Part shown: positions 9,609 through 34,540 of the stretch, one piece after another
Position numbering within the stretch: the first letter of the stretch is position 1
Layout of the letters: every line of letters starts with the position of its first letter
Origin: Amoebophrya sp. A120
Taxonomy: Eukaryota; Protista; Dinoflagellata
NCBI GenBank assembly: GCA_905178155.1
Contig: CAJINV010000022.1
Coordinates: 793,172-857,171 of the forward strand
Length of the DNA stretch: 64,000 bases
Reading direction: 5' to 3'
Translations under genes and position numbers: made by a program
Notes under the pieces: model-generated
The model's input: only the letters and a program-made list of their open reading frames with translations
Database searches by the model: none
What the model was told of the DNA's origin: nothing

Positions 9609-9685
9609 GCTGCTCGTGTCGTCGCTGTTTATGCTCGGGGCGCCGTAAGATGTATTTCAATCCCGGAAGTGCCTGCGAGCTTGTC

Positions 9686-10422: not shown

Positions 10423-10751
10423 TATCGTAAGGGAAAATCCCCCCTCCCCATATTGAAAAGGTAGATCTCAGAAAATTTGCAATGCTGATTTGCGACCTCA
10501 AATCGTCTCTGTCTTGCAAGAACGCAACTCCACAGTCTCCGCCGCATCCTGCAGGCGGTTTGTGATGCTGGTGGCCCTACAGACTAGACGTTTGCCATGC
10601 TCAGCGCCTACTTAGCCCAAAACATCTCTACTCAGTCTTGGCATGGGCCTGCAGTCCTCTCCAGCAAGATAAATCTGATAGATTTGTGTACCCAAATCCA
10701 GCATCAGAAGCCTCGTTTTGATATGGGGAGGGGGGATTTTTTCTTTTGATA
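10423..10751. mobile_element. Introner family F
   Basis: TIR tatcgtaagggaaaatccccctccccata; DR ctcga/ctcga. Confidence 0.9.
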
Positions 10752-11384
10752 CTCGACCTACAAAAGCACAAAAGGTTCGAAAAGTGTCTCTTTAAGTTTA
10801 CTGAGGGCTTTCTAGACTGTCAAGGTACCACTACTTCGCCGCACAACCTAGAAAAAGCAAGAAATAGAAGAAAAAGCTTCTACCAGGAGACTAGCCGATA
10901 GATAAAAGCTAAAGTAGTATTATTGATAGTGCAATAGCACCATCGCAGCGAGAAGAAAAACGCACCTAGAGAAGTAAGACGCACCAGCGTGATTTAATAC
11001 CGCCCTATCGGTGCAGGTGGTGGAATTTACTTTCTTGCAATAGTGCCACGAGCATTAATAGGAATGAGTACTATCTCTTTTTACGCCAACTGGTGACTAG
11101 CAGGAGCTGCTCGACTACTTCTACTCCAGCACTAAATTGTTATTTGAATTGTCTAAAAAAAGCACCGATTATAGACATCGACTTTATCTGCGCGTCGAAG
11201 TAAGAAAGATACCTCACAGCTCGGTGCGGCCTTCTGACACCAAGTGTTTCAGTTTCTACATTATACTTCTGTCCCGGGATAATTTTACATCGAGTTTGCG
11301 AAAAAACAGCGCGCACCCAGAAGCACGGTACTAGGTGAGAAAGAAGAGGCGAACACTGGCAGTGCATATTTTTGCAACGAAAAA

Positions 11385-14300
11385 ATGGCCGATCGTCGCT
11401 CCCTCCCCCTAACGCTGTCAAGCACAACATCCCCGACAATTCCGCCTTTCATCCAGCTGCTGCCAGGACATGCTATGGGGTTCTCGAGCGTGACACTCAT
11501 CTGAGCATGACAAATTATCTAGCGACCGCTGAGATTCTTAGCGGTCGTTAGATAATTTGTTATGCGAAATTACCATCAGCGTCCACACACGCATAATAAA
11601 AGCGCCTTCGCATGACAAACCTCGAAAAGACCAAAGAGCATAGAGATCTGCTCCAGGTTTGACTTTTTACTGCGAGAAGTGCAAGCGCCCTCGCCTCCTT
11701 TCACTTTTGCTATTTTTGCATCTTCAGATCACGCATTCATGTGATTAGCTGAGAATGTGTTAACGGTTGAAAATCCCATACATGCGACGCATCCTAACTA
11801 TGGCTTTTCTCCCAGTGACTGCAGACCTGCCACGGACCCCTTGTATGGCGTCCCCGGAAAAGTGGAGTCGCACCGGGACCTCTTGCGGCTGCTCAAGGAC
11901 AATACCTACAGGTCTTAGGGTGTTTACTTTACTTTTCGCTTTAGGTAGTTTTATTCAAACTTCCCTTTGGGATTTTTCTTTCTTTAGGTAGAAGTTTTCG
12001 CTTGTCTCTTTCAGCACTGGAATACTTTTATTTTTGTATGAACTCTCTGACTATACCTCCAGGACCCACCCGCGTGGGTGCATTCTGTCGGCCGTAGACG
12101 GCACGGTGCTCGAAGCCCAGGAAGGGTGGATATCAAATGCAAAAATGTCTGGGTCTGGAAGATTTCGGGATTTGTGATGCATATTTTGTATGATCCATGA
12201 TGCATGTAATGCATGATCTAGCATCACAGATTTTTAGAGGGCTCCCTAGTGCCTATTCCGCATGAGAAATTCCCTCTCCGCGTAACACAAACTGGACTCC
12301 TGTTGCTGGTCACGCAATACAGATTTTTTTGAAATTCAAAGACAGCATGACAAGTTGCAGTCTTCCAGACCCAGACATTTTTGCATTTGATACTGGAAGA
12401 AGCTGTACAATATTGCGGACGGGGAAGACCCATATCAAATGTGAAAATGTCTGGGTCTGGAAGCTTGTAATGCTGAGGGAGTTAGAATGTGGAGGCCACA
12501 AATGATGGTTTAGCATGACAAGTTTCTGAGCTCCCAAGTCTTGCCTATTCCGCATGACAAACTGCATTTTTGCATCACAGAAAAATAGGGCCTTTGGGTA
12601 ACGCTCATGACAGACTTAAGAGTCTTGCTAGCCTAGCATGACAAACCTTGCACTTTTCCAGACCCAGACATTTTTACAATCCATAACCCAAGGGGCCGGC
12701 CAATTAAGGACGTTTGCGCGGTGCAAGCAAACGGCGGCGGCCCGCAATGGGACAACGGGCTGAGGGAGTTTCTGCAAAATCCGGCGGGGGACCGATGGGA
12801 GGGTATCCTGAGTAAAAATGTACCCACACCAGAGTCAGGATGGGGATTTTGCAACACAAACCTAGGAGTTTTGTGAGTCACGCATGACAAGTTGCACTCT
12901 GCAGTGTAGTGCAGGTTAGCAAGTGCAGCCGCATCACAGATTCATCTGCTCATCCTGTTCACAGCATCACAAATTCCAAAACACGGTTGGAAGTGGCTCT
13001 CATGCGGATGCGCATTATAAGTCTTCCTGTCTTTGCAAATATGCATTACAACTCTGGTGTGGGTACGTTTTTACTCAGGATAGAGGGCGTTCCGGTGTCT
13101 ATCACATCAAACGGGGAGATCAAGACCGTCTATGTCCGCCGGCCTCTTTATGCAGGCGTCAGGTTTGAAATGGACAAAGTTGAAATGATGATTTGTCATT
13201 CATAAAATGCAAGGCATGAAGTGCCTGCCTTGCCGGAACAGCAAGTGAGGCCAATTCCGAGCCTGTTTGATGGGGTTTGAAATATATAGAGCTGCTAAAG
13301 TAGCATGACAAAAGCAGTCTTTTGTCCCCCAAACAGCATAGCACATTGGACTCCGGTCTTGAAAAACCCTAAACCCTAAATTTGTCATGCAACCCCTGAT
13401 AAGTGGGCTTTCGAGTGGTGTCGGTTGTATGCATGACAAACTATTTCAACTTTGACGATTTCGGTCCTGACACTCCCATACTTTGGTGTTCGAGCTCAAA
13501 AATGGTCCGCCGGGGCTGAACGAACAGTGGGAGATGCAAACGCTCGGTGTATTCTGAGTAAAAACGCTCCCACCCCAGAGTTGTCATGCAAATCTGCATG
13601 CCAAAAAAGTTCCCCATGCCGAACCCCATGAGAAGCATTCTCTAGTCGTGTTTGGGAATTTGGGATGCTAGAATCAGCATGATATGCATATCTGTGATGC
13701 CTTTGAACTAGCTAAACAGGATTACGCTACGAGGACAAACTTGTCATGCGAAACAACCAAAGCTGGTGGATTTGTATAAAGCAGATTTATTCGCATCTTG
13801 ACTGTAGTGTGGGTCTGACGTTTTTCCTCAGGATACGGTGATGGGGAGACTTTGCTGTTTCGGAATCAACGCGTGCTGCCAGTGGGGCACCCGAAGTTTG
13901 CGGAGGGTGCGCAGATGGCGATCAAGCTCTCGGTCCTGACCGCGCGAGACCCCTTCGGCACACAGCCACTGGATTTTTTTCTCGAGCCGTATCAAATGTA
14001 AAAATGTCTGGGTCTGGAAGAATTCATGTTTGTCATGCTTGTCTGGCATGACTCTTAAATCTGTCATGCACGTTACCCAAGAGCTCCGTTTTTCTGTGAT
14101 GCAGAAGGGCAGTTTGTCATATGCAGAATAGGTAACACCTAGGAGCTCAGAAACTTGTCATGCTGAGCCAGCATTTGTAGCCTCATCATGAGACGCCAAC
14201 CAGCATCACAAGTTTCCAGACATCCAGGGATTTTTACTTTTGATAAGCCGATCCCCAGCACGATCGCGGTGGCCAGTCCACCGCTCTGTATCCTGAGTAA

Positions 14301-16315
14301 AAACGTACCCACCCCAGAGCTGTAATGCAAATTTGCAAAGACAGGAAGACTTGTAATGCGCATCCCCATGAGAGCCATTTCCAATTGTGTTTTGGAATTT
14401 GTGATGCTGTGAACAGGATGAGCAGATGAATCTGTGACGCGGCTGCACTTGCTACCCTGCACTACACTGCATAGCGCAACTTGTCATGCGTGACTCACAA
14501 AACTCCTGGGTTTGTGTTGCAAAATCCCCATCCTGACTCTGGTGTGGGTACGTTTTCACTCAGGATACTCTACGTCGAAAATTTACTGTACCGCGAGTCC
14601 TTCTATGCATTGCAAAAGTATCATCGTACTTGTAGTAAAATTGCAATCATGCAGGACTAATCTAATCGCACTTCGCATGACAAAGAGATTTTATTTGTCA
14701 TTTTAAGCTAGTTTTTTGCAATGTAAAAATCACCACCAGTACGCTCATACTTTTTCCTTTCATACCTTCCTGTGCAATCCTATGGAATTAATCTCAAACC
14801 TTACATTATCAGCTGCTATATGACTTGTTATGCAAAATTACCGTCAAGATCTACATGATCAAGCTGCTTCGCATGACAAGTTCTACAAGAGACAAACAGC
14901 ATGGAAATCCATGCCAAATCTGTAGTGCGGCGGGTGCAACAACCTTCCCCTTTTCCTTTCGCTTCTCTTGCATATACAAATTCATGTAACAGTTGAGAAT
15001 GTAACGTGGGACGAGAACTGCATAAACGTCGACTGGCACACGGCCGTGCTGGCGAATACTATCCTCGATTTACGCCGCCAGGGCCGCTTGGTAAGTCTTC
15101 CATTTTGCTGGTTTTAGGTCGTCTTTATTTGCTGTCCCGACCGCCCCAGGTCGGTGTGAACAGAACATCTTCATGACTTTATTCGTTTTGTCTATGTGGT
15201 GGACCTTTCGTGATGTCCACCGTAATCAAGAATTCGGTTGTGATTAGCAAGACAAAGAAATAAGTGGCTAGATTCTACCGAAGCCCCCATCTTTGCCGCT
15301 AGGTTCCAGCAATAGCATCACAAATTGGCCAAAGGATCAACCTAACGATCAAAACCACCAGCAAGATCAACCAGCAAGATCAACCAGCAAGATCAACCAG
15401 CAAGATCAATCAATACATATTTGACAATCAAGAGCAGTAGCCTTTCTTCCAAGAATAGTACTTATGTTTATGTGGTGAGGTCTTCACTACGGACGCTATA
15501 GAAGTCTGGCGGATTTTATTTTGGAAACCGGTAAATAAAACACAAGAATAACATCGACAGGCGAGGGGCAATGCGATGTCGATGGTCACGCGTCCGAACG
15601 CCGGCTATCCAATGCAAAAATGTCTGGGTCTGGAACAAAGCAACTTGTCATGCTAAATCTGAATCATGTAAAAATCTGTGTTGCATGATTACCAAAAGCT
15701 GTCCACTTTTGACTTGAGCAAGAGGCAGTTTCTCATGCAGGATACGCATGATAGAACTCTCACCGAATCTGTCATGCGAGGTCCCGCATTCCAGACCTCA
15801 TGGGTCATGGAAAACCTGCATGACAAGTCTGGCATTCTTCCAGACATCCAGGGATTTTTGCAATCCATACCGGCGTCCTCGCTACAATTGCTGAAGAGGA
15901 TGCGTCGACTATGGAGAGGAAAAATCCCCCCTCCCCATATTGAAAAGGTATGTTTCCGAAAATTTGTGTTGCTGATTTGAGGGCACAAATCACATCTGTC
16001 TTGCAAGAAGACAAGGGCAGAAGCTTCCTTCCCATTGTGGAAGCGATTTGTCATGCTGTTGGGCCTAAAGGTCAGCCGTTTGCCATGCTGAGCAACTAGG
16101 CCCATACGCCCCTACCTAGCCTGGGGCTCTGGCCGCAATGCCTCTCTGCAATACAAAGCTGATTTGTGTACACAAATATAGCATCAGAAATTCCGTTTTG
16201 ATATGGAAAGGGGGGACTTTTCCTTTCGATATCGACCGTGGCGCCAGACCACGGGATGAATAGCGATTACTTCGATGATACGCCGGGCGGCAACTACAAC
16301 AGTCCAATGTACTAG
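11385..16315 (+). CDS. Host gene with PAS-like domain; 12 introners and 2 GT-AG introns (11912-12014, 15091-15560)
   Basis: Manual splicing gives one frame: MADRRSLPL...RGCILSAVDGTVLEAQEGWKKLYNIADGEDPRGRPIKDVC...LREFLQNPAGDRWEGVPVSITSNGEIKTVYVRRPLVFEL...YNSPMY*. The PAS call is by resemblance only, and the second canonical intron is less certain. Confidence 0.75.
11474..11780. mobile_element. Introner family E
   Basis: tatgggg...cccata; DR catgc/catgc. Confidence 0.85.
12131..12392. mobile_element. Introner family A
   Basis: TIR tatcaaatgcaaaaatgtctgggtctggaaga; DR gtgga/ctgga. Confidence 0.9.
12433..12684. mobile_element. Introner family A
   Basis: Family A TIR; DR accca/accca. Confidence 0.9.
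12804..13082. mobile_element. Introner family B
   Basis: TIR tatcctgagtaaaaa.gtacccacaccagag; DR gaggg/gaggg. Confidence 0.9.
13149..13480. mobile_element. Introner family C
   Basis: Imperfect TIR tatgcaggcgtcagg..gaaatggacaaagttgaaat; DR ctctt/ctttg; removal restores the frame. Confidence 0.8.
13550..13835. mobile_element. Introner family B
   Basis: tattctgagtaaaaacg...cctcaggata; DR cggtg/cggtg. Confidence 0.9.
13990..14245. mobile_element. Introner family A
   Basis: Family A TIR; DR agccg/agccg. Confidence 0.9.
14289..14567. mobile_element. Introner family B (near-identical inverted copy of 12804-13082)
   Basis: Same 279-bp length, reverse-complement internal sequence; DR ctctg/ctcta. 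Confidence 0.9.
14604..14764. mobile_element. Introner family D
   Basis: tatgcattgcaaaagtat...tttcata; DR ccttc/ccttc. Confidence 0.85.
14781..15024. mobile_element. Introner family E (degenerate)
   Basis: ttacatt.tca.ctg / cagttgagaatgtaa TIR core; DR aatcc/aacgt; removal restores the frame. Confidence 0.75.
15357..15409. repeat. 13-bp minisatellite (accagcaagatca) x4
   Basis: Direct reading. Confidence 0.85.
15606..15869. mobile_element. Introner family A
   Basis: Family A TIR; DR ccggc/ccggc. Confidence 0.9.
15910..16231. mobile_element. Introner family F
   Basis: Family F TIR; DR tcgac/tcgac. Confidence 0.9.
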
Positions 16316-16457
16316 ACGATGCACAGCAAGTCAGAAGCTGACGAGGGAAGTAGTATTAAAGCAGATATAGAACAAAAGAGAACCCGAATTAGTCCTCTAC
16401 TTCAAGAAATGTCTACTGAGCTAAGGTTACTTTCGGACAAGATCGGAGACGAGGCGA

Positions 16458-16778
16458 TATTGTAAGGAAAAATCCCCCCTCCCCATATCGAAAAGGCACG
16501 GCCCAGAAAATTTATCATGCTGATTTGTGACCTCAAATCGTCTCTGTCTTGCAAGAACGCAACCGCGCAGGCTCTGCCGCACTCTGTTGGCGGTTTGTGA
16601 TGCTGTTGGCCCTACAGACTACACGTTTGCCATGCTCAGCGCCTAGCTCAAAGCTTCCCACTTCGGGCTTAGTATAAGCCTGCCGCACTCTCCAGCAAGA
16701 CAAATCGGATTTGTGTACGCAAATCCAGCATCAGAAACTTCGTTTTGATATGGGGAGGGGGGATTTTTCCTTTTGATA
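16458..16778. mobile_element. Introner family F
   Basis: Family F TIR; DR ggcga/ggcga. Confidence 0.9.
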
Positions 16779-16839
16779 GGCGAACTGCGTGCGTCATTCA
16801 ACCTGTTTCATCCAGGAACAAAAATTTGGTTTCTTTCAT

Positions 16840-17082
16840 TATGGCCTTCTCAAATGTTACATTCTCAACTGTTGCGTGAATTGTGATGCAATTTTAGGAA
16901 AAGCTAAAGCAAAAGAAGGGAGCTTGCGCCTCTCGCATTACAAAATAATTAGCACAGATTTCAATGCTGTTTAGCCTTTCAAAAGATTGTCGTGCGCAGT
17001 AGCTTCATCGTGTGGATGCTGATGTGCATTTTGCATGACAAATCATGTGACAGTTGAGAATGTAACGCTTGAGAGCCCCATA
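16840..17082. mobile_element. Introner family E
   Basis: tatggccttctcaaatgttacattctcaactg...cagttgagaatgtaacgcttgagagccccata; DR ttcat/ttcta. Confidence 0.85.
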
Positions 17083-18940
17083 TTCTAGAACATGACTAGG
17101 CTTCCTATCTTGAAAACTGATTTCGTCCGAGGAACGCACTTTTACTTAATGATCATTTCATTTTACTTAAATGTAAAAAGCGAAATCGTTGGCACGAGAA
17201 GAAGCAGAGACGTAGATGTTCATGTTATGCAATTTTCATTTTAGTTTCTCAATGAAGTCAAGAATCAAGAAATAGCTCTAAAGGAAAAGATGAAATAATT
17301 TCATTTCCTTTAATCGAAGAAAGAGTACGTAGATAGTTAGAAATACCAGAATCGAAGAAACAATCACCAACCCGATAATCGTATTTATTATAAATGTCTA
17401 GATGATTACACACCCCAATTCTGCCTCCGAAATCTCCATGAAAGGAGGAAGAGCAACTAAATAGGGTCTCAGAATGGAGCATGAGCTCGAAGAACAACTG
17501 CTGAATAAATGAGATCGAAAATTCACACTATTTACGACGGATGTGTGCGTTTTCAACAAGGCGATGACAACCACACGAGATTGATCGTTGGATGCAAGTA
17601 TTACTCCCTTCCTACTATGTTTTTCGACCCGTCAGTTCTTAACAGCTCTCGAAACAAGAAGTCTAAACTACAAGAACTCCCCAAGTTTAAAATCGCATTT
17701 AGCAAGTTGATGTTTTAGAAAGGTTTCAAAATGAAGGAAAAAAAAACGTGACGAAAAAGAGGAAGAAAAGTGGGACCAGCAGGATTATCCTGGCTCTTGT
17801 TCCCCCGACTGCATGACAGACTGGAAGCAATTTTCGTATCGCGCCGTATTCTGTAGAACTCGGTCGTGAAGAGGGTGCTCGGTACTCATGCCGGAAATTT
17901 CTCGTGAATGTGCGCGAGTTTGACGGTACACGGTCCTATCGGTCTGACCGCAGAAAGCAGTAACTTAGTACCTTGCTCTACTTCGTGCGCACTTTCTATC
18001 TATATATTTGTTTACACTTGTTTACTCACGCGACTCTCGTTTACATGTTGCTCATGACAAGTTGCTTTTGATTTTGCCACTGAGTTTGTGCTGTGGCGCA
18101 TGTGGGCAGTTTTACCGGCAAGGAATCTGTAATGCTGAAAATCAAAAGTCCCTTCACTTTGCGATGTAAGTAACTTTGATGAACGACGACCAGTAAGAAA
18201 TTAGTGTGCTGAGATTTATTCGAGAATTTCGATATTCGCCAGCGCTGTAGACCGACGTGGTTTGGGGAGAAAAATATCATAGATTAGTGAAAAACGAAGA
18301 GTAAAAATTGTCAACCCTTAAGAGCACGGTGCGTGACGCGGGAGGTTCTGAAGACCTTTTTGACGTAGTAGCAGTACCGATAAGTCGTGAAATACGGTCG
18401 CTGAAACTCGTCTCTACTTCCGATGCTGGAAATAACGATAGCATATATTATATATTGCTGTTAGCGTAGAAAAAAATCTACTGCACGGAAATAGAATGTG
18501 AATGATCATAAATTTTAAATCAAAAAAGTTGCGTTTCCTCCAGCTTCAGTTGTCAACGTACAAATACGATTTTTTTCCCGTGTCTTATCGAATACACAAA
18601 ATTATACACAGGAAGACGACTAAGAGGAAAACTCAGTACGAATCTCTCGGTCTCGAAAAGTCGTGTCTATCCGAATAGTATAGAGAAGGATTTTGTCTTT
18701 GATTTTCATCACGGAATAGAGTGTCTATCGGGAAAGTAGTAGTAGAGAAGGATCTTCAACATCACTATCATCATGTCAAAGTCCAACGATACGGTACGCA
18801 CGGAAGCGGAGTGGCGCAAAATGGTGCAAGATGGAGCCGGTGGGCGAGGTACTACGAGTTTCTAAACAAGACTTGAGAGGGGTTTTCTTTTTGGGGTGTC
18901 ACTTCTTCAATTCGTGTTGTCTAGGAGCATCACTATCTTA

Positions 18941-19035
18941 CAGGAACAGGCACAGGATCTTCAAACATTATCTATAAGAAACAGCAACAGGAACACAGGA
19001 TCAAACATTATCTATAAGAAACAGGAACAGGATGC
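18941..19035. repeat. Short tandem repeats upstream of DVNP
   Basis: cacaggatc...aaacattatctataagaaacag twice, plus caggaa units. Confidence 0.75.
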
Positions 19036-19047
19036 AGGATTCCCCCT

Positions 19048-19416
19048 ATGAAATCTCCCAACCACCTTTCCCCAATCACCGCCCTTATTCCTTCAGGTAA
19101 CAAAATCCGGGGCACCTACCAACAGGTTTGGAACGGTACGCGCGGCCGTACTGCGAGCGGTCTTTACAAATCGGATTTGATGATGAACGCCGAGGGCAAA
19201 ATCGTCAGCAAAAAGCGTTCGAAGGCTGGGAAAAAGAAGTTCGCGGGCTGGCACAAGGCTTGCGCGAAGGCCAAGCAAAAGCTGGACGTCGGGAAAAAAG
19301 GCCGGGACTTTGTGCCTATCGGTGGAGTGAGTCGAGATGGCAAGAAGCTCCTCAAGGAGGCGAAACAGGAGTACACGAAAATCAAGGCGATGAAGGTAAA
19401 GAAGGGGAAGAAATAG
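19048..19416 (+). CDS. DVNP: Dinoflagellate/viral nucleoprotein
   Basis: GTYQQVWNGTRGRTASGLYKSDLMMNAEGKIVSKKRSKAGKK and W.KAC.KAK..L...FVPIGG....GK.L.KEAK..Y match the DVNP pattern; Lys-rich; intronless. Confidence 0.92.
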   Translation: MKSPNHLSPITALIPSGNKIRGTYQQVWNGTRGRTASGLYKSDLMMNAEGKIVSKKRSKAGKKKFAGWHKACAKAKQKLDVGKKGRDFVPIGGVSRDGKKLLKEAKQEYTKIKAMKVKKGKK

Positions 19417-19677
19417 AGGAGGTGGACGCCGTGCCTACAGTTGGCGGGAAGTAGACGGGCCGTTCGTATACGATAGCAAAAGCGATATACCGAGGAATTT
19501 TTTGAGCCACGTCGTACCCAGGGCGACTGTGTTTCAGAAAGTGTAACTCTCGGTTATTCGGTTGCGCTTGTGAGGATTAAGAGAACAAAATACGAAATCT
19601 GTAATGCAAATCTCAAAGACCTACAACAAAACATTCGGAGCTGAAAAATCTTTTTTGAAAAACATTGGAATCTTCAA

Positions 19678-19785
19678 GGAAAAACCGCATTGCAGATTGA
19701 TCCCCCCCCCATGGCAGATTGATCCCCCCCCAACCCCATGGAAAAACCGCATGGCAGATTGATTCTGAACAAACCGCATGGCAGT
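19678..19785. repeat. Short imperfect repeats (aaaccgcatggcagattgat)
   Basis: Four partial copies separated by C-runs. Confidence 0.7.
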
Positions 19786-19969
19786 TTGTTTAGAAAGTTT
19801 GAAAATGAAAGAAAAAATAAAAACGTGACGAAAAAGAAGAAGATGAAAAGTGGGACGACCATCATGCTCTTTTGTTCTTGAAAGAGGACGACAAAATTCG
19901 AACTACTACAGGTAATGCAGATGTTTAAAATGGACGAGGAACTAAGATCATTTTGGCCAACAGGAGCTC

Positions 19970-23739: not shown

Positions 23740-26080
23740 ACGAACATGTCGAGAAAAAAAAAAATACCGTAGAAAAAATCAAAAAGCACCTAGAAAAAAT
23801 CAAACCGTGCTCCCACTGCAGAAAAAACCAGTCGGGTGCTTTGAGAAAAATCGAGAAGAATGCAAGAAAAAACTTTCTCCGCGCGCGCGCTGCGCGCGCA
23901 GCGAGGTTGTTTCTCAGCGTCTCTGCACATGGGGCGCGCCCCAACCTCCGTCTGTCGCTTGAAAAATTTTCTCCGCGCGCTGCGCGCGCGGGTTTCCTGC
24001 CTCGCCCTTCTTCTTGGCCGCCGAGTATGTGGGTGCGGTTCTTCTCCACACAATGCGCGGCCCCGCCTGGCCGCGTGGCCCGCTTGCCGCAAAAATTTTC
24101 ATTCTCCGCGCGCTGCGCGCGCAGCGAGGTTTCTTGTCAGCGCTCCCCACATTTGGGGCGCGCACCCACCTCCGTCTGCCGCTTCAAAAATTTTCTCCGC
24201 GCGCCGCGCGCGCGGCGACGTTGCTTCTTAGCGTTCCCCGCACATGGGGCGCGCCCCCCACCTTCGCCTGTCGCTTGAAAAATTCGCTCCGCGCGCTGCG
24301 CGCGCGACGAGGTTGCTTGCAAACGTTCCCAGCACGTGTGGCACGCCCCCACCCCCGTCTGCCCTTTGAAAATTTTCTCCGCGCGCCGCGCGCGCGCCGA
24401 GGTTGCTTCTCAGCATTCCCCACGCATGGGGCGCGCCCCCATCTCCGTCTGTCCCTTGAAAAATTTGCTCCGCGCGTTGCGAGCGCGGCATTGCTACCGC
24501 TGCCGTCTTCTTGGCCACGAAGTATGTCGGCCCGGATCGTCTGCACCCAATGCCGCGCGCGTCCGCTTGGTCGGTTGCGTAGCCCGCTGCTCGAAAAAAT
24601 TTCCCCCGCGCGCTGCGCGCGCGGCGAGGTTGCTTCTTAGGGTTCCCCACACATGAGACGCGCCCCCGCCTTCGTTTGTCGCCTGAAAAATTCTCTCCGC
24701 GCGCTGCGCGCGCGGCGTGGTTGCCCCTCGGCGTTCCCCACACATGTGGCGCGCCCCCGCCTTCGCCTGCCGCTTGGAAAATTTTCTCCGCGCGCTGCGC
24801 GCGCGGCGAGGTTGCTTCCCAACGTCCCCTGCACATGGGGCGCGCCCCCACCCCCGTCTGCCCTTTGAAAAATTTTCTCCGCGCGCTGCGCGGTGGCTTC
24901 TCAGCATTCCCCACGCATGGGGCGCGCCCCCGTCTCCATCTGTCGCTTGACAAATTTGCTCCGCGCGCTGCGAGCGCGGCATTGCTACCTCTACTGTCTT
25001 CTTGGCCGCGAAGTATGTCGGCTCGGCTCGTCTGCACCCAATGCCGCGCGCTTCCGCTTGGTTGGTTGCGTGGCCCGCTTTTCGGAAAAATTTTCCCCGC
25101 GCGCTGCGCGCGCGGCGAGGTTGCTTCTTAGCGTTCCCCACACATGGGGCGCGCCCCCGCCTTCGTCTGTCGCTTGAAAAATTTTCTCCGCGCGCTTCGC
25201 GCGCGCCCTTGCTGTCTCTGCCTTCTTCTTGCCCGCGAAGTGTGTCGGGTTCGTTGGCTACCCTGCGCCCAATGCGCCCGCTCCCTCGCTTGGCTGCGTT
25301 TCCCGCTTGTCGGAAAAATTTTCTCCGCGCGCAGCGCGCGCGGCGTGGTTGCCTCGCCACGCTACCCGCGCCCACCGCGCGCCCCCGCTTGCGATGTCAC
25401 TTGGGAAATTATCTCCGGGCGCTGCGCGCGCGGCTTTGTTATTTCTCTTTTCTCGGCCGCGAGGTCCGCTTTGTTTTGCACACCCAGTGCGCCCAGCCCC
25501 GCCTGGTTGCGTGGGTGGCGGGCCCGTTGGCCTGAAAGGAAAACGAACCGCGTCCGCTTGCAAGGCGAGGCCGTTTCTCAGCGTTGCCCACACATGGGGC
25601 GCGCTCCCACCTCCGTCTGGCGCTTCGCGGTGCTGGGGCTTCGCGCATCGCTTGGCGCGTGCGCGTGTGTTCGGTTTTTCCGCTTCTGGGTGGAGGTCTT
25701 TTGATTTTCCCCGGAGGTGTTTGATTTTTTCTACCGTATTTTGGAGGTTTTCGGCCGCTGGCCTCGAATGGGCGGGACGAGAAGACTTTCGAGAAAAAGC
25801 GAGAACCTCGAGAAAAAGTGAGAACTTCTCGAGTTCTTGCCATTTTCTCGCTTCTCTCGGTTTCGGACGAGTTCCATTTGATTTTTTCTACAGCTGTAGA
25901 AAAAATCAAAGCGAGGCGTTTGTTTCTTGTGGGAAAAGCCGTCGTCTTTGTGTTTTCTCGTTTGATTTTCTCTTTATATCTTTTCTCTTCTTTTTTCTCT
26001 TTTATTCTCGTTATGATTTTTTCTACCGTTTTTTGATTTTTTCTACCATCACTAGAAAAAATCAAATATTTTATGCGCGG
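23740..26080. repeat. GC-rich ~91-bp satellite array (~23865-25620) flanked by inverted gtagaaaaaatcaaa arrays; probable foldback element
   Basis: Unit gaaaaattttctccgcgcgctgcgcgcgcggcgaggttgcttc...catggggcgcgccccc, about 16 copies. aaaataccgtagaaaaaatcaaa (23761) is inverted at 25720-25742. Confidence 0.8.
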
Positions 26081-27177
26081 CGACTGGAAGAACGGCAGTA
26101 ACCCAAGTTTATTTCGTCTTGTATCGTTTTCAGTATTACAAATTTGATCGTAGTCTTGGTCCGAGTGGTTCTGGAGGTTGTTAGGTAGTGCGTTTCGAAA
26201 AAATGCGAAATGTGCTCCAAGTTGCCGCTCTAGCATTACAAACTACTACTTTTTTGCCCCTTTCCTTCTTCTTCTTTAGCGAAACACGATAAGCCGGGCA
26301 CAAACGTATTGTCCTTGTGTTTATTTCGACTTTCATCGTTTTCAGCATTACAGAATTGAGGTCAACTCCCTCTTTTGTGCTTCTCTCTTTCTTCTTTATA
26401 ACCTGATCGGCAGTTGCTCGCCTCGTTTTTTATCTTTCTGTCTGCGAAAAAAGATCGAAGTTTTTGGATATTAACCTGCGAAAAAAGATCCGGAAATACG
26501 GAGAAAATTCACCTTCAGTTGCTTAGCTTGTTTAGGCTGTGCAAAATTCCTTGTCGAGTATCAAAAAAGCCGCTCCATTTTTGAACCCAAACTGATAGTT
26601 GATTGGCACATCCGTAAGAATAAGGTGAAGCAGTGGCCAAAGCTTTCGCGGGGACTTTTAATTGTTGAAAAGCGCATGACAGACCTGTTGTTCGTCTTTT
26701 AACACGCTGCTACGAGAGACACGGGGAAAACAACAAAAAGGCTGAGAGAACTCAGAACCATTGACCTCAAGCAAGTACGATGTTGACAACGGCGAAAACA
26801 ATCAGCCGCAAGCTTGATGCCGCCTTAGTTGCAAAAAACGCTTCGAAGAAGCTTTTTGGTTGCAATATTGAACGGTGGACGTGCTACTTCTACTTGCACT
26901 TGTACTTCTTACCATAAAGAACTAGCGGCGGTTCATAAAAAAATCATACGTCGGACTGGATCCAATCCTGAACGCCGGTTTGTGGATGTACTGGTGTGTT
27001 GAGCGTAGGTTGTTTATTTTTTATCGTGTGAGGATTAAGATATTGGCTTTTTTCTCCTGGTCGCCGACACTTCCACTACTAGGCCGTCGCAACCAGGATG
27101 CAATAGAGTACATACTTTGTGTCATCTAGAAGAGGACACCCGTTTGATATTTCGTAGGGGAATAGAAGTAAACGAAG

Positions 27178-30100
27178 ATGGCGGCGTTTTTCTGGTCGTG
27201 TAGTTTCTCTGTGGTTCTGGTCACCTTCGCAACGGCCAGCAGCACGAACGTCGTTGCAATCAAAAACGCCTCGAGAACTACCACCTCATCTGCTTCACCA
27301 CCGTCCCATCTAATCCAGAATCTCGCAAGACGGTTTTTCCTATGGAGAGAAAAAAGTTTGTCACAGTCACTAACTTGCAGGTTTTGCATTACAAATTTTC
27401 TCAGCATCACAAACTTTCCTTGTATTGCAGAAACACTAGGGAAATCCAAATCCCTAATGAAGTTTGGCTGTGATGCATTTTTACGCATGACAAACAATTT
27501 TGTATTGCAGGAATGCGCATGAGTGATCGTGACGAACTTTTTTTCTTTGATATTTCCTGCCTCGTGATTATTCCGCCTCAGCGCAGCGGGAGGTGCAGGA
27601 GCTTGCTTCCCGATTGAAAAGCCGGGAACATATCAAAAGGAAAAATCCCCCCTCCCCATATTGAAAACGCAGCCTTCTGAAAATTCGTGATGCAGATTTG
27701 TGGCTACAAATCCTGACTGTGTTGCAAGAAGGCAAAGCCAGAGAGTCCGCCGTATTATGCAGGCGGTTTGTGATGCTGTTGGGCCTACAGTGCGGATATT
27801 TTTCATGCTAAGCGCCTAGGCCAAAGCCTCGCTTTTCGCACTTAGTATGGGCCTGCAGTGCTCTCCAGCAAGACATCTAGGATTTGCGTACGCAAATCCA
27901 GCATCAGAAATTCCGTTTTGATATGGGGAGGGGGGACATTTCCTTTCGATAAAACAGGATCGGGAACGACCAGCTGGCGGGGGCGAGGATGCGGGGTCTA
28001 CTTCTGCATCTGCTCCCTTGTTGCTTTCCGTATCAAGTGCAAAAATGTCTGGATCTGGAAGATGCAAGCTCTGTCATGCAGCTTTCGCATGGGCCAGAAG
28101 GTCTGGAATGTGAGCACTAGCATCACAAGTTTTGAGAAGGCCCTCTAATGCTGAATGCGCATGAGAAATACCGCCTTCTGGTAACCAGAAGTGAGGACTT
28201 TTGCTGGTCCCGCAATACAGATTTTTGTGTCGATCAGATTTAGCATGACAAACTCGGACTCTTCCAGACCCAGATGACATATTTGCATTTGATATTCCGG
28301 ACTTTCCAACAACGACTTGCTGGAACAGCGACTGTATCCTGTGCAAAAGTATCGTACTCGTAGTAATTGCAGTCATGCATTACAAATTTCTTTCTTAAGT
28401 TAAATCCGCATTACAAATTTTATTTCTCATGCTGAGGAAATTTGTATTGCAATTACTATATATTATATTCATGCGAAAAAAGAGGTAGACAGAGGGTAAA
28501 CAAGAGGTGGCCGAGAGGTCAAAAAGAGGTCAAAAGAGGTAGAAAAGAGGTCGACAGAGGTGGAGAGGTGGCGCGGGACCCCATTCGCGAGGGTCGGCGA
28601 GAGGGTGCGCGAGTATAGCCCGCCGAAGCGCTCACCCTAAAGCGCCGCCTAAGTGCCTGAGAGGGTGCAGAGAGGTCAAAAAGAGGGGGCGCGAGAGGTC
28701 GACAGAGGTGGAGAGAGGTGGCGCGAATAAGGTGCGACCTCTCGCGGACCCTCTTGGCCACCTCTCGGCCACCTCTGTTGACCTCTGCCCACGAGTATAG
28801 CCGGATTATTAGCGGGGACCCCCAAAAGAGGTCAAAAAGAGGGTCTGCGGGAGGTCTGTGAGAGGGTAAAAGCACACCTAAGCGGGCGCGAATCCCCATG
28901 GCACTCCCCGTATTTGGCATTGCAGGCCATTCGCGGACTTGTTTTGTTCGGCGCCTTTCCGCGCCACCCCCACGCGCACCCTCTCGCGCCACCCTCTCGC
29001 GCACCCCCTCGCGCAAAACCTCTCGCGCAACCCTCTCGCGCAACCCTCTCGCGCCACCCTCCCGCGCCACCCTCTCGCGCTACCCTCTTGCGCTACCCTC
29101 TCGCGCCGGGCGGCTTCTGTTCGCCCCCGGTGTTCTTTGCAGCTGCTCCCTGCGCAGAGCGCCCACAGGCGCGGGAAGCGCGCAAGTGGTCCTGCGGGTT
29201 GGCGCGGCGCAAACTCCAGTATGTTTCGTTGTGAAGGACTCCAGTATCTTTCGCTGTGCACAGGCACGTGGCGTTGTGGTCCGATCGGCAAACTGTCTTG
29301 CCCCGGCCCAACAGCCTTGCGCTCCGGCGGCAGCCGGAGCATGGCTGGTTTGTACTAGTGCGATGCTTTTGCATTTCATAGACTGGGCGAGGAACTGTTC
29401 GTGCGTGCAGGAATAGACGATAACTTCGAGCAAGGAGTGTGGGACGCGACCAGAGATTCCTCTGCTGGTGCTCCTCGTGATTCTGACGTGTATGGATTGT
29501 AAAAATGTCTGGGTCTGGAAGAATGCATGTTTGTCATGCTTGTCCGGCATGACTCTCAAATCTGTCATGCACCTTACCCAAGAGCGCCATTTTTCTGTCA
29601 ACATGCAGAAACGCAGTTTGTCATGCAGAATACGCAGCACCTAGAAGCTCAGAAACTTGTCATGCTGAGCCAGCACTTGCGGCCTCCGCATGATACGCCA
29701 CCCAGCATCACAAGTTTCCAGACCCAGACATATTTGCATTTGATAAAGCGACGACCGCACCGACGACGCCGTCCGCCGTGACATATGCAAGAAAAAAACT
29801 GTGTAAGTGTAAACTTGTGTTGCAGAAGATGCAACAGAGTTACGCCTGTCATGCCAGACAGCTATGAAATCCTCTTTTCATGTGTGTTTTCCCTTACAAA
29901 CCACACATGACAGGTTTTCTCTGTCATGTAGAGCAAATTTGTGATGCTGTTCCTCAAAGAAAGTTACACTTACACACTTTTTTTCGTGGATATGACACAG
30001 GCAACCTTCAACCAGGTGGACCTTTCCAAGAAGCAGCAGGAGGGCTCTACTGTAGTACCTTCCAACGAGCAGCCCCCTCTCGTCGACCGACCCTATTTGA

Positions 30101-31463
30101 CTCCGTTGGAGTGCTATCAAGTGCAAATATCCCTGGATGTCTGGAAGAGTAAAAACTTGTCATGCAGAATTTCTATGCCCCATGAGGTCTGAAATGCAGG
30201 ATCTAGCATGACAGATTCTACTGCAAGGTCTCTATCATGCCTGTCCTGCATGAGAAACTCCCTCTCATGGTGGGCAGATGCGGGCAACTTTTGGTGATCA
30301 CGCAAGACAGATTTTTGTGTGATCCACAGGACGCATCACAAGTTCCGCTCTCCCAGAGGACCCAGACGTATTTGCATTTGATAAGTGCCATCGCGTCGCC
30401 AAAGTTCTGCTGAACGCAATTCAGCCCGCGGGGATTATCCTGTGCAAAAGTATCGTACTCGTATTGCAATCATGCATTACAAATCTTTTTCTTAAGGTGA
30501 AGCAGCATTACAAATTTTATTTCTCATGCTGGAAAAATCTGTAATGCATTTCTACGAGTACGATGCCTTTGCAATGCATAGGGATACTGCGGGTGCTATC
30601 CTGTGTAAAAACGTCCCCACCACACACTTGTAATGCCAATCTGCATGCTGAAAATATTTCTCATGCGGAGCCCCATGAGAAGCATTTTCTAGTTGTGTTT
30701 CGGAATCGGTCATGCTCCAATCAGCATGACATGCTAGATCTGTGATGCTGCTTCACTACTAGCTGATGCTGAACAGGATTACACTACGAGGCCAATTGTC
30801 ATGCGCAACAGCCAAAGCAATTTGATTTGTCTAGCAGATTTCCCATGTTGATTATGGGGTGGGGACCACGGTTTTCAACATGATAGGTGCCGTTGCGGGC
30901 TTATCAGAACATCGCGGACCCCTTGGTGTTGAAATTCATCGCGAAGTGTATGGGCGGAGTCGTAGAGAACGCGCACCTAGTGCCGGAAACCTGTTGGTCA
31001 ACCTGCACTCTGGCGGACGTGTTTTTGAAAAGATACGCCAACCACGACATCGAATGGGGTGATTATCAAAAGGAAAAATCCCCTCTCCCCATATCGAAAA
31101 CGAAATTTGTGAAGCTGTATTTCAATACACAAATCGACTTGTAATGCTAGAAGGCCAAGCGCCGCAATTGTGGCCTCGTTTGCAGGCAATTTGTCATGCC
31201 GTTTCCCGCTTCCGGCTGCCTCCTGTCATGCTGAGGATGCAACGCTTTCCCACGCCAACCACAACTACAGTCCGCATCTTTATTTCCCTCCTAGCATGAC
31301 AAAGCTGATTTGTGGCCGCAAATCTGCATCACAGATTTCTGTTTTGATATGGGGAGGGGGGATTTTTCCTGACTATAGTGATGACGTTGTAATCCCGCAG
31401 ATGTTGGCGCAGCTTCGCGAGCACCTGCGCAGCTGGTCTCACGCCCGGGAAAACGAGAAAAGG
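27178..31463 (+). CDS. Host gene for an unknown protein with signal peptide; 10 complete introners plus an 11th interrupted one; 3' part outside the window or disrupted
   Basis: Manual splicing gives one stop-free frame: MAAFFWSCSFSVVLVTFATA...RRFFLPRDYS...LLSGLSNNDLLEQRLGEELF...PLECHRVAKVLLNAIQPAGILRVPLRAYQ...IEWGDDVVIPQML...ENEKR. Confidence 0.85.
27341..27552. mobile_element. Introner family H
   Basis: tatggagagaaaaaagtttgtcac...gtgacgaactttttttctttgata; DR tttcc/tttcc. Confidence 0.85.
27631..27951. mobile_element. Introner family F
   Basis: Family F TIR; DR gaaca/aaaca. Confidence 0.9.
28031..28294. mobile_element. Introner family A
   Basis: Family A TIR; DR ttccg/ttccg. Confidence 0.9.
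28335..29380. mobile_element. Introner family D carrying a nested ~894-bp insertion
   Basis: Left part matches 30436-30580; right TIR at 29358-29380; DR gactg/gactg. Confidence 0.85.
28459..29352. mobile_element. Nested non-coding insertion rich in gagagg/cctctc inverted motifs
   Basis: Flanked by tacta (28454-28458) and tacta (29353-29357); accctctcgcgc tandem at ~28978-29106. Confidence 0.65.
29491..29745. mobile_element. Introner family A
   Basis: Family A TIR; DR acgtg/aagcg. Confidence 0.9.
29784..29992. mobile_element. Introner family G
   Basis: tatgcaagaaaaaaactgtgtaagtgtaa...ttacacttacacactttttttcgtggata; DR tgaca/tgaca. Confidence 0.85.
30115..30383. mobile_element. Introner family A
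   Basis: Family A TIR; DR agtgc/agtgc. Confidence 0.9.
30436..30580. mobile_element. Introner family D
   Basis: tatcctgtgcaaaagtatcgtactcgta...tacgagtacgatgcctttgcaatgcata; DR gggat/gggat. Confidence 0.9.
30597..30885. mobile_element. Introner family B
   Basis: Similar to 13550-13835; DR ggtgc/ggtgc. Confidence 0.85.
31064..31377. mobile_element. Introner family F
   Basis: Family F TIR; DR gtgat/gtgat. Confidence 0.9.
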
Positions 31464-31577
31464 TATGCATTGCAAATATGTCTGGGTCTGGAAACTTGTG
31501 ATGCTGAGTTGCGTAGCATGAGGAGGCCAAAAGTGATGGCTCAGCATGACAAGTTTTCGAGCTTCTAGGTGTTGCCT
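31464..31577. mobile_element. Introner family A, left 114 bp only (interrupted)
   Basis: Collinear with 12433-12684 and the reverse of 13990-14245 up to ...ggtgttgcct, then homology stops. Confidence 0.85.
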
Positions 31578-32644
31578 TACTGGTGTAACGGACCCCCAAA
31601 ATTACGGAGGTCGAAACTTGCAATCAAGTTGCCAAAGACTTGCGCGACCCAGCACATTCGAGGTCGTGACAGCTTCAACATGAGCTGTTCTGTGACGCAC
31701 CTTTGACACCGGCCGGCTTTGCAACTAACAACAAGACGCGAAGCTGTGGCACGGTGCAACGCTTTTCGTGCCTTGACGGGCGCAATATGATTGGGCAGAG
31801 TCGCTACGTCTTAAGCTTTCTAACGGGCGCGCTCTGAGGGAGCATTTAGTTTTATTTTCTTGCTTGGCTCAGTGAGAGGAAAAAGAGGGGCGACCTTTGT
31901 TTCACTATCTTGAAGGCTGTTTCTAAGTTCTCTACTCAACAGAGACTAAAGCGCGTCTGACATCTAGGCGCCCTACGAATTCAGGCTGAATCGTAACGAC
32001 AATGCGAAGGAGAACGATACTACGATGAAGCTCTGCCAAAATTAAGTAAACCGACCTTCTTCTTTTTTCACGAAAAACCGACCGGCAGAGCAGACGAACG
32101 CGACTGCGCGACTGGTTGCACGACAAGCGCGACGACTACGAGCGCCCGCACTTGTATCCCGCCCGGGGAGGCGGCGGCGACGCGTCTCATCGTACCGAAA
32201 ACTGACGCACAGAGTACTCGACAACCAGGAGAAGACACCATATTTATGCGAAAACCGAAGCAGCATATCTTTGCTGAATGTGGTAAGGAGAAAGACCGAT
32301 GCCCCATGTCAGTGAGCGCCGACCACTCACCGAGCAGGCGCACAAGTGGCTCCACAGGTCCACTCTCCCGACAGCACCGAGCTGGCCAAAGAGCGCGATA
32401 GGAAAAAAGCGAGGCGGCCCCGGCGGGTGTTCACGAAAAACGCCCGTCGGCCGTTTTTGCTTGTCTAGCTTCTTCCTGCTGCGTCAGTCATGATTTTATG
32501 CCGTTGCGTGCATCTCAAGCGTATATTTGCGAAAGCGTCTATGTGCGTAATTTAGCGTATATGTGCGAAATTCATTTTCATTGGCCAAGTTGCGTTTTGG
32601 TTTCGAAGTCGGCACAACGTGCGCTGCGAGGCTTCCATATTTAT

Positions 32645-34540
32645 TCACAGATCGTCATCCGAGTCGTCTTCGTCTTCAGTATCAGTGTCCTCCGTCACGT
32701 TTTCCATCTCGGTGACTTCCAACGCAGCTGCCCCCAGCTCCGCGTCGTCCCACCAGCGAGCAAACTCGCAGGTAAAACCGACATAAACCACAATGTCGTA
32801 TGGTGCCGTCTTCTTCTTTCCAAGCACGGCCCGTATGTTTTCGAACCGGCTGGTGTTGTCACGGAAGGCTTGGCGCCGCACTGCCTTGAGTAAGTCCCGG
32901 AACCGCTTGTCCCACAGCCCCAGGGTCGCAGCTCCGGTAGTGTCGTCTCCGCCGTTTGCGCAGCTGAATATGAACTGCAAAAGCATCGCAATAGTATGAA
33001 TTGCGTCACAAATTCAAATTCATCCGCCAAGTACAAAAAAGCAATTTGTCATACTCCTTCGGGTAGAAAGTTGGGCGTGTCATGCATGATTGCAATTGCT
33101 ACTAGTCGATGCTTTTGCAGTGGACACTGAAAGCTCCCCAACCGTACGCCATGTTCAACGTGCGTTTTGGTCCGCGCCCGAAAGAAACGCCGCACTCCTT
33201 CCTGTAGCCCAGGTTCTTCGGCAGCCTTTCCCCTTCGTCCAAGGCGTGCTCTATCGAGTTCTGCAGGATCAAGAAGAGCTTCATCCCTGAGAAGGGTCCG
33301 CATACTTTCGTGCAGGAAAGGAAGAACTCGTGTCTGCTGACCTGTCTGCGGCGTTTTCCGTCCGTCTTCTGCAGCTTCAATACGTTGGTCTCCATTTTCG
33401 CAAAGAGGTGGTCCTGCATATACTTGACGTACGCCGCGTCCGGGTCCTCGTCCTTTTTACCTTTCTTACCCCCGGCAGGCATGTAGAATTGTTCTTTTTT
33501 GCGGTATTTCTGCACGCATCCGGGTTCAGACAAAAGACGCTTTGCTGAATGCAGCATGCGCTCGGGGTCGATTGCGTCGCCGGCGTCGCTGTGGTGTGAC
33601 AAAATAAATACGTGAGTGAGAGTGGATGCGGGGCAAGAAGCTGAAAAAACAACCACCGAAACCGAAGGCAAACGGCATTTGTATAGTCAGAAGAAGAAAT
33701 GTGCGCAGAACAGCTGATGAGCATGATTTTCACGCATAACAACGAATAGACTGTACTAGGCTGCGGCAAATGTGAAAAGTTACTACTTACCTGCCCGCCC
33801 CGTCTGCCGCTCCACTCAGATCCTTTTCAAGATCATCCAGGAACTCGTCAGATGGGCTGCGCGCAAGAACCAGCGCTGTCCTGACGCGCGTGTTCCACTC
33901 TTCCCGCGCGGAGCTGCCCTTCGTTCCTTTTACGCAGCGGCTCACGAAGTTCATTCGTTTCGACCAGGCGGCACCTGGGGGAGTTTATTTTGGTGAATTT
34001 CCAAACGTAAAGGTAAAGCTGCAACCGGACCCATATTCTGCCCCGACCTTGCCTCACTCACAAAGCGCGAGACTGTGCCAAAGGATTTACCAGCGCTGCT
34101 TTTCCTCCTTATACTGGCCGACGCCGAGAACAGCTTCAAAAATGCAAACTCTTGGTTTGTGGTAGTGGCCCCACAAAGGAAAGCACTGCACTAATTTCGA
34201 ACGCAAGCAAACGACAAAAAAGGAGATCACCACACTCACCTTTGGCCTCTTGCTTCGCTTTTTTCCTGAGCCATGTTCGCGCGATTTGGAACTTGCACTC
34301 CATTACCCCCTTCGTTATCATCTCGGACCGGGGTGGGGGAGAACCCTTCCGCCTGTGAAAGGGGTTTGCGTACCTAATCACGGTGACAGAAACGCTCTGA
34401 TCTGCCGGGGCCGGTTTGTTTGCCACTGTCTCGCCACCAAGTTCGCGAAAAAACCGGCACATTTCTTCGAGCCAGAACAGAAAAACGATCATGAACTGGG
34501 CTCTGTCTGCGGGCGCCCAGTTTTTTCCGTTCCCCGGCAT
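32645..34540 (-). CDS. Divergent aGPT-Pplase1 / 5-hmdU DNA kinase helical-domain-like protein (multi-exon)
   Basis: Ordered motifs FLFWLEEMCRFFRELGGE..IRYANPFHR, QFYMPAG, VCGPFSGMKLFLIL, VSFGRGPKRTLNMAYG, YDI..FTCEFARWW, then an acidic tail. GT-AG introns (donors ~34239, ~33790) and one introner. Confidence 0.55.
32969..33126. mobile_element. Introner family D
   Basis: tatgaactgcaaaagcatcg...cgatgcttttgcagtggaca; DR ctgaa/ctgaa; removal fuses ...GWGAFS to CANGG... in frame. Confidence 0.85.

Follow-up and report, generated by a model that had tools for sequence, protein, structure and literature searches.

We find that the introners in a 64-kb stretch of the Amoebophrya sp. A120 genome (hereafter the window) are probably non-autonomous TIR transposons that are exactly removed, and that the word GCATNACA repeated inside them is a candidate double-stranded DNA site for the copying machinery rather than a splicing mark. 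Mobilisation at the DNA level is the likely role of the word because it changes after insertion at a roughly neutral rate, has no strand bias and is lacking from most ordinary introns. The analysis separates two signals, with the motif pointing to the double-stranded DNA level and the terminal UA to splicing. These bear on two questions of Farhat et al., namely what moves tens of thousands of introners when no transposase is recognised in the genome, and how splicing works without U1 or a fixed border.

Element ends and families

We catalogued 26 TAT...ATA elements across the window. Their 5-bp DR was perfect in 18/26, with one mismatch in four elements, two in three and three in one, which bears out the TAT/ATA ends and 5-bp DR of the first-pass annotation. 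Two further elements with perfect DRs, 11474-11780 and 32969-33126 (the latter with ACA at its right end), bring the complete elements within 10423-33126 to 26. Comparing the interiors by BLAST, we obtained 10 groups, and because these collapse to 8 TIR types, the earlier count of eight families stands.

The wider comparison covered about 390 introner copies of 13 families from a related assembly. Terminal base counts at 700 ends gave an IR pattern of TAT, about seven variable nucleotides and then at least three A, where the TAT end was a precondition of element detection and hence not independent. DR mismatch amounted to 5-6% per site in BLAST-based copies. Insertion orientation was even (65/65 in the largest group), and we found no target preference or splice-dinucleotide preference at the insertion sites. 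A homologous gene (L045:5400-6054) is free of the elements. Being short, non-coding, present in many copies and bounded by TIRs and a TSD, with empty sites, the elements have the features that define MITEs.

The A120 introners of Farhat et al. 2021 (PMC7789003) are described as having IRs of TAT, seven variable bases and an A run, DRs of 3-5 nt (5 bp in the Fig. S19 legend), a length of about 240 nt and many families, and as being removed from RNA. The window elements resemble them in TAT IR, DR, families, length and RNA removal. Its text gives no internal motif or spacing and treats the location of the borders as unknown (legend of Fig. 3), whereas here we see a phased, conserved motif and a cut after DR base 4. 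Judged by the published description, the elements appear to match the published introners, with the motif phasing and the fixed cut as added features.

Removal from transcripts and the splice register

The transcript region of host gene 1 (11380-17750, plus strand; one contig per run) holds 14 introners and two GT-AG introns. All 14 introners tested were missing from transcript-type contigs (11380-17780), each minus exactly the element plus 5 nt; these contigs come from runs X4-X7 of a single study, whose kind was guessed as RNA. The removed elements are an F-like copy (11474-11780), B1 copies at 12131-12392 and 15606-15869, B2 copies at 12433-12685 and 13990-14245, C copies at 12804-13082, 13550-13835 and 14289-14567 (the first inverted relative to the last and 95% identical to it), a D copy at 13149-13480, an E-like copy at 14604-14764, A copies at 15910-16231 and 16458-16778, and F copies at 14781-15024 (old, with three DR mismatches) and 16840-17082. 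The frame over 12053-15093 is stop-free only when element plus 5 nt is taken out. The two plus-strand GT-AG introns, both missing from the transcript contigs, served as controls; 11912-12063 has no motif, and 15091-15561 (ends approximate to 1-2 nt) has one strict match.

Host gene 2 (27179-31460, plus strand) rests on the frame test, with no RNA joint seen. Its 10 introners, from the catalogue, belong to families G (27341-27552), A (27631-27951), B1 (28031-28294 and 30115-30383), E (28335-29380, with a GC-rich insert of about 0.9 kb, and 30436-30580), B2 (29491-29745), H (29784-29992), C (30597-30885) and A2 (31064-31377). Removing each element plus 5 nt leaves 302 stop-free codons, while taking 0, 3, 4 or 6 nt beyond each element leaves stops. 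A family A copy with a perfect DR lies in a non-coding context (10423-10751), and the E-like copy at 32969-33126, in a minus-strand gene, restores the frame with +5 only. Beyond 10423-33126, the catalogue holds a B1 copy (294-556), and an old E-like copy on the minus strand with one motif site (59936-60124) restores the frame with +5.

The splice register is set by the direction of the transcript and not by the orientation of the element, and the intron is N-TAT...ATA-NNNN. Five joints, all in contigs of one study, are informative through DR mismatches; two are exact and three compatible, and all are consistent with cutting after base 4 of the left DR. Both exact joints belong to the F copies, which lie in opposite orientation (14781-15024 and 16840-17082); that of the latter, 16838 to 17087, is unambiguous. 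The DR mismatches of 13149-13480 place the cut after base 3 or 4 of the DR, 14289-14567 is cut before DR base 5, and 12131-12392 has its mismatch at position 1. Codon usage gave no signal for the register (36 vs 32).

The first intron base (n = 280) was G in 98, A in 83, C in 60 and T in 39 cases; the elements do not follow a rule of GT/GC donor plus AG acceptor, and no 3′ dinucleotide preference was found. The 5′ UA looks protected, as though it belonged to a donor whose first base is free. Its changes numbered 1 vs 17 initially and 2 vs 12 after the direction calls were revised (p = 0.013, post hoc), with weaker ratios in strict subsets (1 vs 4 and 2 vs 4). An apparent protection of A at -7 (8 vs 2) was gone once the direction calls were revised (6 vs 4).

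Splicing, we propose, is likely to be a different step that takes place on the RNA and is gauged from the paired ends. The final base of the left duplication would be the first of the intron (N-UAU), and the intron would stop 4 nt beyond ATA; U and A would then occupy +2/+3, the arrangement of a spliceosomal donor whose first base is relaxed. In 32969-33126 the transcript-5′ end is TGT, and in this register a G would precede it and give a GT donor. A fixed N-UAU...AUA-N4 register would be a testable splicing rule and could re-annotate thousands of intron borders.

Fixed offsets have parallels. Euglena nonconventional introns follow the code N3-CDG...CHG-N5-6 then a purine (PMC12501133); they share with the window elements paired ends that fix the cuts at set offsets and a transposon-like origin, but the offsets here are 1 and 4 and the ends TAT/ATA. 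Non-canonical introns of Fritillaria, as summarised in a review (PMC11282704), are mostly AG-AC/AG-AT; these too combine fixed-offset paired ends with a transposon-like origin and differ in having AG-AC/AG-AT in place of TAT/ATA.

Enrichment, spacing and decay of the internal word

Searching both strands for strict GCATNACA, we counted 78 matches in the 7,607 bp of 26 elements, against 2.2 ± 1.4 expected (maximum 7 in 200 dinucleotide shuffles). The exons between elements (1,832 bp) had 0 matches and long ORFs 1 match in 9,111 bp. The motif is therefore dense in the elements and rarer in exons, as had been claimed at first reading. The accompanying claim of several sites per element holds on average, with about 5-6 sites per copy, but not for family A, whose copies have one strict match each plus GCATCAGA and GCAAGACA variants. 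The top 7-mer, GCATGAC, was found in all 10 interior groups, and the full word reaches about 12 bp, GCA(T/A)NACARRYT (8-12 letters). We found no description of the GCATNACA word in the searchable literature.

Same-orientation pairs were 31-33 bp apart in 20/79 cases, in 12/13 families (null mean 2.3, maximum 9 in 5,000 draws); the 13 families are not fully independent, since two pairs of them share TIRs. A length of 31-33 bp corresponds to three turns of B-DNA. The B1 copy at 12131-12392 has motif pairs at 43/75 and 184/215, and the C copy at 14289-14567 has six sites, all same-facing. Spacers between paired sites are mostly unrelated between families, and the first site lies 33-45 bp from each end in most families. 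The 31-33-bp pair is absent in five RNA-verified elements, and one element (14604-14764) has a single site and is removed nonetheless. A 16-bp alternating lattice is hinted at by 17-bp head-to-head pairs (7 at a loose threshold).

Divergence from the family consensus was 5.8% in the core, 23.7% in the interior and 27.1% at the N position. The core was less divergent than the interior in 13/13 families and about fourfold more conserved than the adjacent bases. A word that is common to unrelated interiors, conserved in 13 families and spaced at 31-33 bp agrees with the first-pass proposal that one trans factor reads a shared cis code.

Once an element has inserted, its core changes at a roughly neutral rate. 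The rare core changes came to 340/11,788 = 2.9% (CI 2.6-3.2). The neutral clock based on mismatched DR bases at codon positions 1-2 gave 3.6% (2.5-5.1), and that from terminal sites gave 2.7% (1.8-4.0), built on direction calls partly revised later. The C of GCA changed in just 1.0% (17/1,684), under the neutral clocks. Damaged sites per copy followed a binomial distribution with no deficit of multiply damaged copies. Core change was alike on the two transcript strands (5.9% vs 6.1%, p = 0.69), and core divergence was 6.6% in exonic copies (n = 310) and 6.1% in non-coding ones (n = 25). The near-neutral change, the lack of strand bias and the likeness of exonic and non-coding copies lend no support to the earlier suggestion that the word marks the segment for removal. 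The motif was also considered as a branch point, which was rejected for the lack of strand or 3′ bias.

Copying machinery and rival roles

In the reading that we favor, the GCATNACA word is a putative double-stranded DNA binding site of a shared transposase or helper. One protein may bind repeatedly along a single helix face and help to join the element ends; if copies with intact sites alone seed new copies, the word would stay conserved among families. The 5-bp stagger and the TA ends suggest that an integrase-type enzyme could mobilise the elements. More tentatively, one undiscovered integrase-type machine might mobilise all A120 introner families via phased GCATNACA and not via the family TIRs, with the TA end serving as +2/+3 of a U1-independent donor whose first base is free; nearly any insertion, in either orientation, would then be born a precise intron. 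The phased word could be used as a bait and as a genome-search signature for the mobilising machinery. Scanning the window together with 0.6 Mb of other loci (103/185 long ORFs), we found no transposase or long autonomous TIR element, and Farhat et al. report none from A120. Viral contigs gave 0 matches for the TIR, and their 7 matches to the pair pattern had no motif arrays nearby and were taken as chance.

It is unlikely, in our judgement, that the motif acts instead as a redundant removal signal, of which a splicing factor, or a DNA-bound co-transcriptional recruiter, would need at least one copy between the paired ends in place of the missing U1. Such a role would suit the similar distances of the first sites from the ends, the presence of at least one strict site in all 14 RNA-verified elements and the rarity of elements lacking any site at the PWM threshold (1/350 detected); U1 snRNA is also reported as undetected in these genomes. 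With about 5-6 sites per copy, the loss of a single one might escape selection, and decay of each site at the neutral rate would then be compatible with a splicing need for one copy. Against it stand the multiply damaged copies in no deficit, the symmetry of strands and ends, the equal divergence in exons and non-coding DNA and the five verified elements without a 31-33-bp pair. Moreover, 35/270 exonic elements have sites in one orientation only, so an RNA reader must accept both the word and its complement. As a general intron signal the word was rejected, being absent from 35/42 element-free GT-AG introns, a set from rough de novo prediction with borders not RNA-verified. Under lenient filtering, the lean was to UGUNAUGC in 9 introns and the other way in 3 (p = 0.15), a weak lean in the direction of a removal signal. 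The strand bias among predicted introns came mostly from introns containing elements (33/88 dropped, 7 of these on short matches that are possibly only motif).

Slightly less probable still is a host chromatin or DNA-binding protein recruited by the elements for packaging, silencing or targeting, with an indirect benefit to copying. Double-strand symmetry and helical spacing would suit any DNA-binding protein, and the word is in excess outside the families too, with 181 kb of non-coding DNA giving 66 matches vs 21.6 expected (several in 31-34-bp pairs), about three times the expected count in element-free introns and other non-coding DNA, and 22 vs 4.6 expected in the remaining window, a mild enrichment partly due to elements missed at that stage. 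However, many outside matches fall within missed or decayed elements, the density outside is about 30 times lower (0.36 vs 11.7 per kb), and transposase sites better match the end-anchored placement. Shared ancestry, duplication of an internal 32-bp unit, or RNA stems of the word with its own complement are disfavoured and quite improbable. Certain families do have TIRs and spacers in common, and folding predictions have 76% of motif bases paired (39% with another motif), vs 59% of the other interior bases. Yet the core stays constant while its neighbours and the central N diverge fourfold, the spacing is kept though spacers differ between most families, opposed sites are often unlike at N, and the TIR stem has no excess of G.U over A.C (297 vs 302; rare changes 94 vs 83). 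We give hardly any credence to excision from DNA in some life stage, as for ciliate IESs, with the motif marking the elements. It would explain the TA ends, the single DR copy left, the exact removal and the symmetric DNA-level motif, but the register tracks transcript direction, not element orientation, and single-copy contigs of runs X1 and X2 cross from exon into element, though contigs drop rare forms.

A DNA-level site for the copying machinery has precedents, as the ends of hAT, CACTA, Tn7 and Mu carry transposase-bound subterminal repeats. Lemi1 proteins bind the subterminal repeats of Emigrant MITEs (PMC1636448). The window elements resemble these MITEs in being short and non-autonomous, with TIRs and with an interior that carries repeated sites close to the ends; unlike them, they have no known cognate transposase, one word across different TIRs and a fixed 31-33-bp pairing, and they double as introns. 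The 4-5-bp TSD of Ginger2/TDD elements (PMC2836005; 5 bp in TDD-4/5) is shared by the window elements, but the termini are TGTNR there and TAT here. IS3EU/GingerRoot elements (PMC10045372) share the TA..TA termini, but their TSD is usually 6 bp against 5 bp here, where removing 6 breaks the frame. The window elements have no coding sequence tying the copies to either Ginger2/TDD or IS3EU/GingerRoot. The PMC12130899 dataset has an entry for A120 family 38 that reads 'Ginger, 5-bp TSD, TA/TA termini'.

Element ends, families and the internal motif

The window carries short inserts with TAT...ATA inverted repeats at both ends and a 5-bp direct repeat (DR) outside. We catalogued 26 of them, 18 with a perfect DR, and a looser scan added two more TAT...ATA-type elements. 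Grouping by interior BLAST gave 10 groups, which collapse to eight terminal inverted repeat (TIR) types. The first-pass annotation had proposed eight introner families with differing TIRs but shared TAT/ATA ends and 5-bp DRs, and both points held. The ends agree with those of A120 introners as described by Farhat et al. 2021 (PMC7789003), in which TAT is followed by seven variable bases and then by a run of A, with short DRs. Removing each element plus 5 nt gave stop-free frames of 214 codons over 9 elements and 302 codons over 10; no such frames arose when 0, 3, 4 or 6 nt were removed with the elements. Between the two ends of an element, TIR positions 1-3 and 11-30 are conserved, unlike positions 4-10, which often differ (18% divergence) in all families. 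The left part of a B2-type introner lies at 31465-31600 (right end not located), and gene 2 (27179-31460, plus strand) may extend past it. Roughly 0.9 kb of inserted GC-rich sequence is seemingly nested within introners at window 28484-29350 and metagenome locus L018:505-1608, hence in both assemblies. The two long elements carrying it form one similarity group, and no transposase-like ORF is apparent.

The strict motif GCATNACA matched 78 times in 26 elements versus 2.2 in shuffles, with no match in 1,832 bp of exons and a single one across long ORFs totalling 9,111 bp, bearing out the earlier impression of a dense internal motif scarcer in exons. Copy numbers were raised by scanning metagenome contigs with one TIR word, giving at least 149 partly overlapping loci (0.6 Mb); this retrieval skews TIR statistics for the two largest families. 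Among the matches listed, these loci carry the same families as the window, with identity up to 96%, and one locus (L045) holds a gene 1 homologue without the elements. End detection there found at least 323 further elements, and consensus BLAST at least 399 copies, 388 of full length (11 were dropped). Among the matches listed, elements held 11.7 motif sites per kb, against 0.36 for other non-coding DNA and 0.21 for a rough exon class. Upstream of gene 2, intergenic DNA at 26100-26370 holds three motif-like words, two of which immediately follow a pyrimidine tract that ends in AG, and a degenerate, CGCGCG-rich tandem array lies at 23900-25650.

We analyzed motif anatomy in 13 families of at least five copies (302 copies), excluding 30 smaller groups among the matches listed. 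The full word in these families is GCA(T/A)NACARRYT. Same-orientation pairs at 31-33 bp made up 20 of 79, in 12 of the 13 families, against a random-placement mean of 2.3 and maximum of 9. Spacers between paired sites are mostly unrelated across families, although two pairs of families, having common TIRs, are not independent. Each of the 13 family consensuses has its first site 33-45 bp from the left end. For repeated sites near the ends, those of hAT, CACTA, Tn7 and Mu offer a parallel. Divergence from consensus was 5.8% in the core, 27.1% at the central N and 23.7% at other interior bases. Shared ancestry alone, which fits neither this core conservation nor the excess of pairs, is disfavoured: selection acts on a spaced, double-strand-symmetric word.

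Removal from transcripts and the cut register

Transcript evidence came from four presumed-RNA runs (one study, two samples). Across 11380-17780, exons were joined in one contig per run. The 13 listed joints span 14 elements, and every joint skips the element plus 5 nt; two further joints in these contigs are GT-AG introns. In sequencing runs X1 and X2, single-copy contigs pass from the exon on into the element, and these runs thus show no joined form of the DNA, although contigs drop rare forms. Ciliate IESs are a parallel for removal at the DNA level.

Where the DR copies differ, the surviving bases reveal the cut. The joints at 14781 and 16840 retain exactly bases 1-4 of the left DR and base 5 of the right one. 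The cut falls after DR base 3 or 4 at 13149, before base 5 at 14289, and after base 1 or later at 12131. Since 14781 and 16840 are members of the same family but lie in opposite orientations, the register tracks the transcript, whichever way the element points. This makes the intron N-TAT...ATA-NNNN; the Fig. 3 legend of Farhat et al. (PMC7789003) gives the border position as unknown. A codon-usage test of the register gave no signal with 68 mismatches.

BLAST-found copies include some with an altered terminal triplet, and we compared their ends with transcript direction as judged by the local coding score. For TIR positions 1-2 we counted 1 change at the transcript 5′ end versus 17 at the mirrored 3′ end, and 0 versus 14 of 286 under stricter filtering. 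Long-ORF and neighbour evidence overturned 4 of 24 direction calls; the revised hand tally was 2 versus 12 (p = 0.013; noticed post hoc), with 6 versus 4 at position 3. The ORF-length and neighbour subsets gave 1 versus 4 of 152, 2 versus 4 of 193 and 0 versus 4 of 177, all small and not significant. In both 5′ exceptions and in the element at 32969-33126 the +1 base is G, which would give a GC or GT donor; G makes up 35% of +1 bases. Predicted canonical introns start most often with GTAT (15/48). These counts suggest that the TAT end mimics the host donor at positions +2 to +4. Folding predicted paired ends in 69 of 80 elements, and we saw no G.U excess in the TIR stem.

We predicted 88 introns between coding blocks, a rough set from which the 33 that matched elements were removed. 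This left 42 GT-AG introns, 35 of which lack the motif (7 matches in 13.0 kb versus 2.2 expected), and we rejected it as a general intron mark. A lenient filter gave 48 introns with 15 matches, 9 leaning UGUNAUGC and 3 the opposite way (p = 0.15). Separately, motif pairs 31-33 bp apart without a recognisable TIR lie in introns or non-coding DNA (metagenome loci L023:3383/3415, L058:2397/2430 and L025:11842/11873; window 44954/44986). They are possibly old introners turned ordinary introns.

Mobilisation or splicing as the source of selection

As DR copies are identical at insertion, their mismatches date it. DR mismatches at codon positions 1-2 amounted to 34/933 = 3.6% (CI 2.5-5.1). Rare changes reached 2.9% (CI 2.6-3.2) in the motif core, 3.3-3.6% at TIR positions 16-30 and 2.7% at terminal sites classed as unprotected. 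Per-copy counts of damaged sites fit a binomial. Motif change did not differ between transcript strands, nor did 310 exonic copies differ in it from 25 non-coding ones. Given this near-neutral rate, the binomial damage and the lack of strand or location differences, the word appears to be kept constant among copies that found new copies and to decay freely after insertion, as expected of a mobilisation signal.

Some observations count against this reading. Change at the C of GCA is limited to 1.0%, no RNA-verified element has lost all its motif sites, and just 1 of 350 elements, among the matches listed, has none. With 5-6 sites per copy, moreover, a need for a single one would escape these tests. 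We consider that the motif code most likely belongs to copying, and that removal is likely set by the element ends. The proposal of a common cis code read by one trans factor is supported, but these tests did not support a role in marking the segment for removal.

Novelty and related transposons

A120-type introners are a known system and the feature is real, while their cis grammar (motif, phasing and register) is apparently unpublished. The motif strings had no match in the searched supplements of PMC7789003 and PMC12130899. We found no description of motif or register in the literature searched, though subscription papers, theses, figures or unsearched files could hold one.

Searching for the mobiliser, we found no long TIR element in the window and the metagenome loci listed (0.6 Mb), no transposase family among the 103 of 185 long ORFs scanned, and nothing informative in viral contigs. 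Gozashti et al. 2025 (PMC12130899) describe TIRs together with integrase-neighbouring homology for an A120 family, which they list under Ginger and to which they assign a 5-bp TSD and TA/TA termini. TDD shares the 5-bp TSDs, but its ends are TGTNR (PMC2836005); IS3EU/GingerRoot shares the TA ends, but its TSDs are usually 6 bp (PMC10045372). The introners thus resemble these groups, and we claim no membership.

Direct repeats of about 670 bp (1905-2576 and 9686-10353) enclose two minus-strand ORFs, one of 1,127 codons (2701-6081) with no Pfam match and a GIY-YIG ORF (9074-9628; PF01541, E 4.9e-5, above the cut-off). The stretch 1905-10353 could be a Penelope-like or novel mobile element. Two introner-bearing loci (L071 and L015:581-2080) carry pieces of an RNA polymerase largest-subunit gene and a C-5 cytosine methylase ORF.
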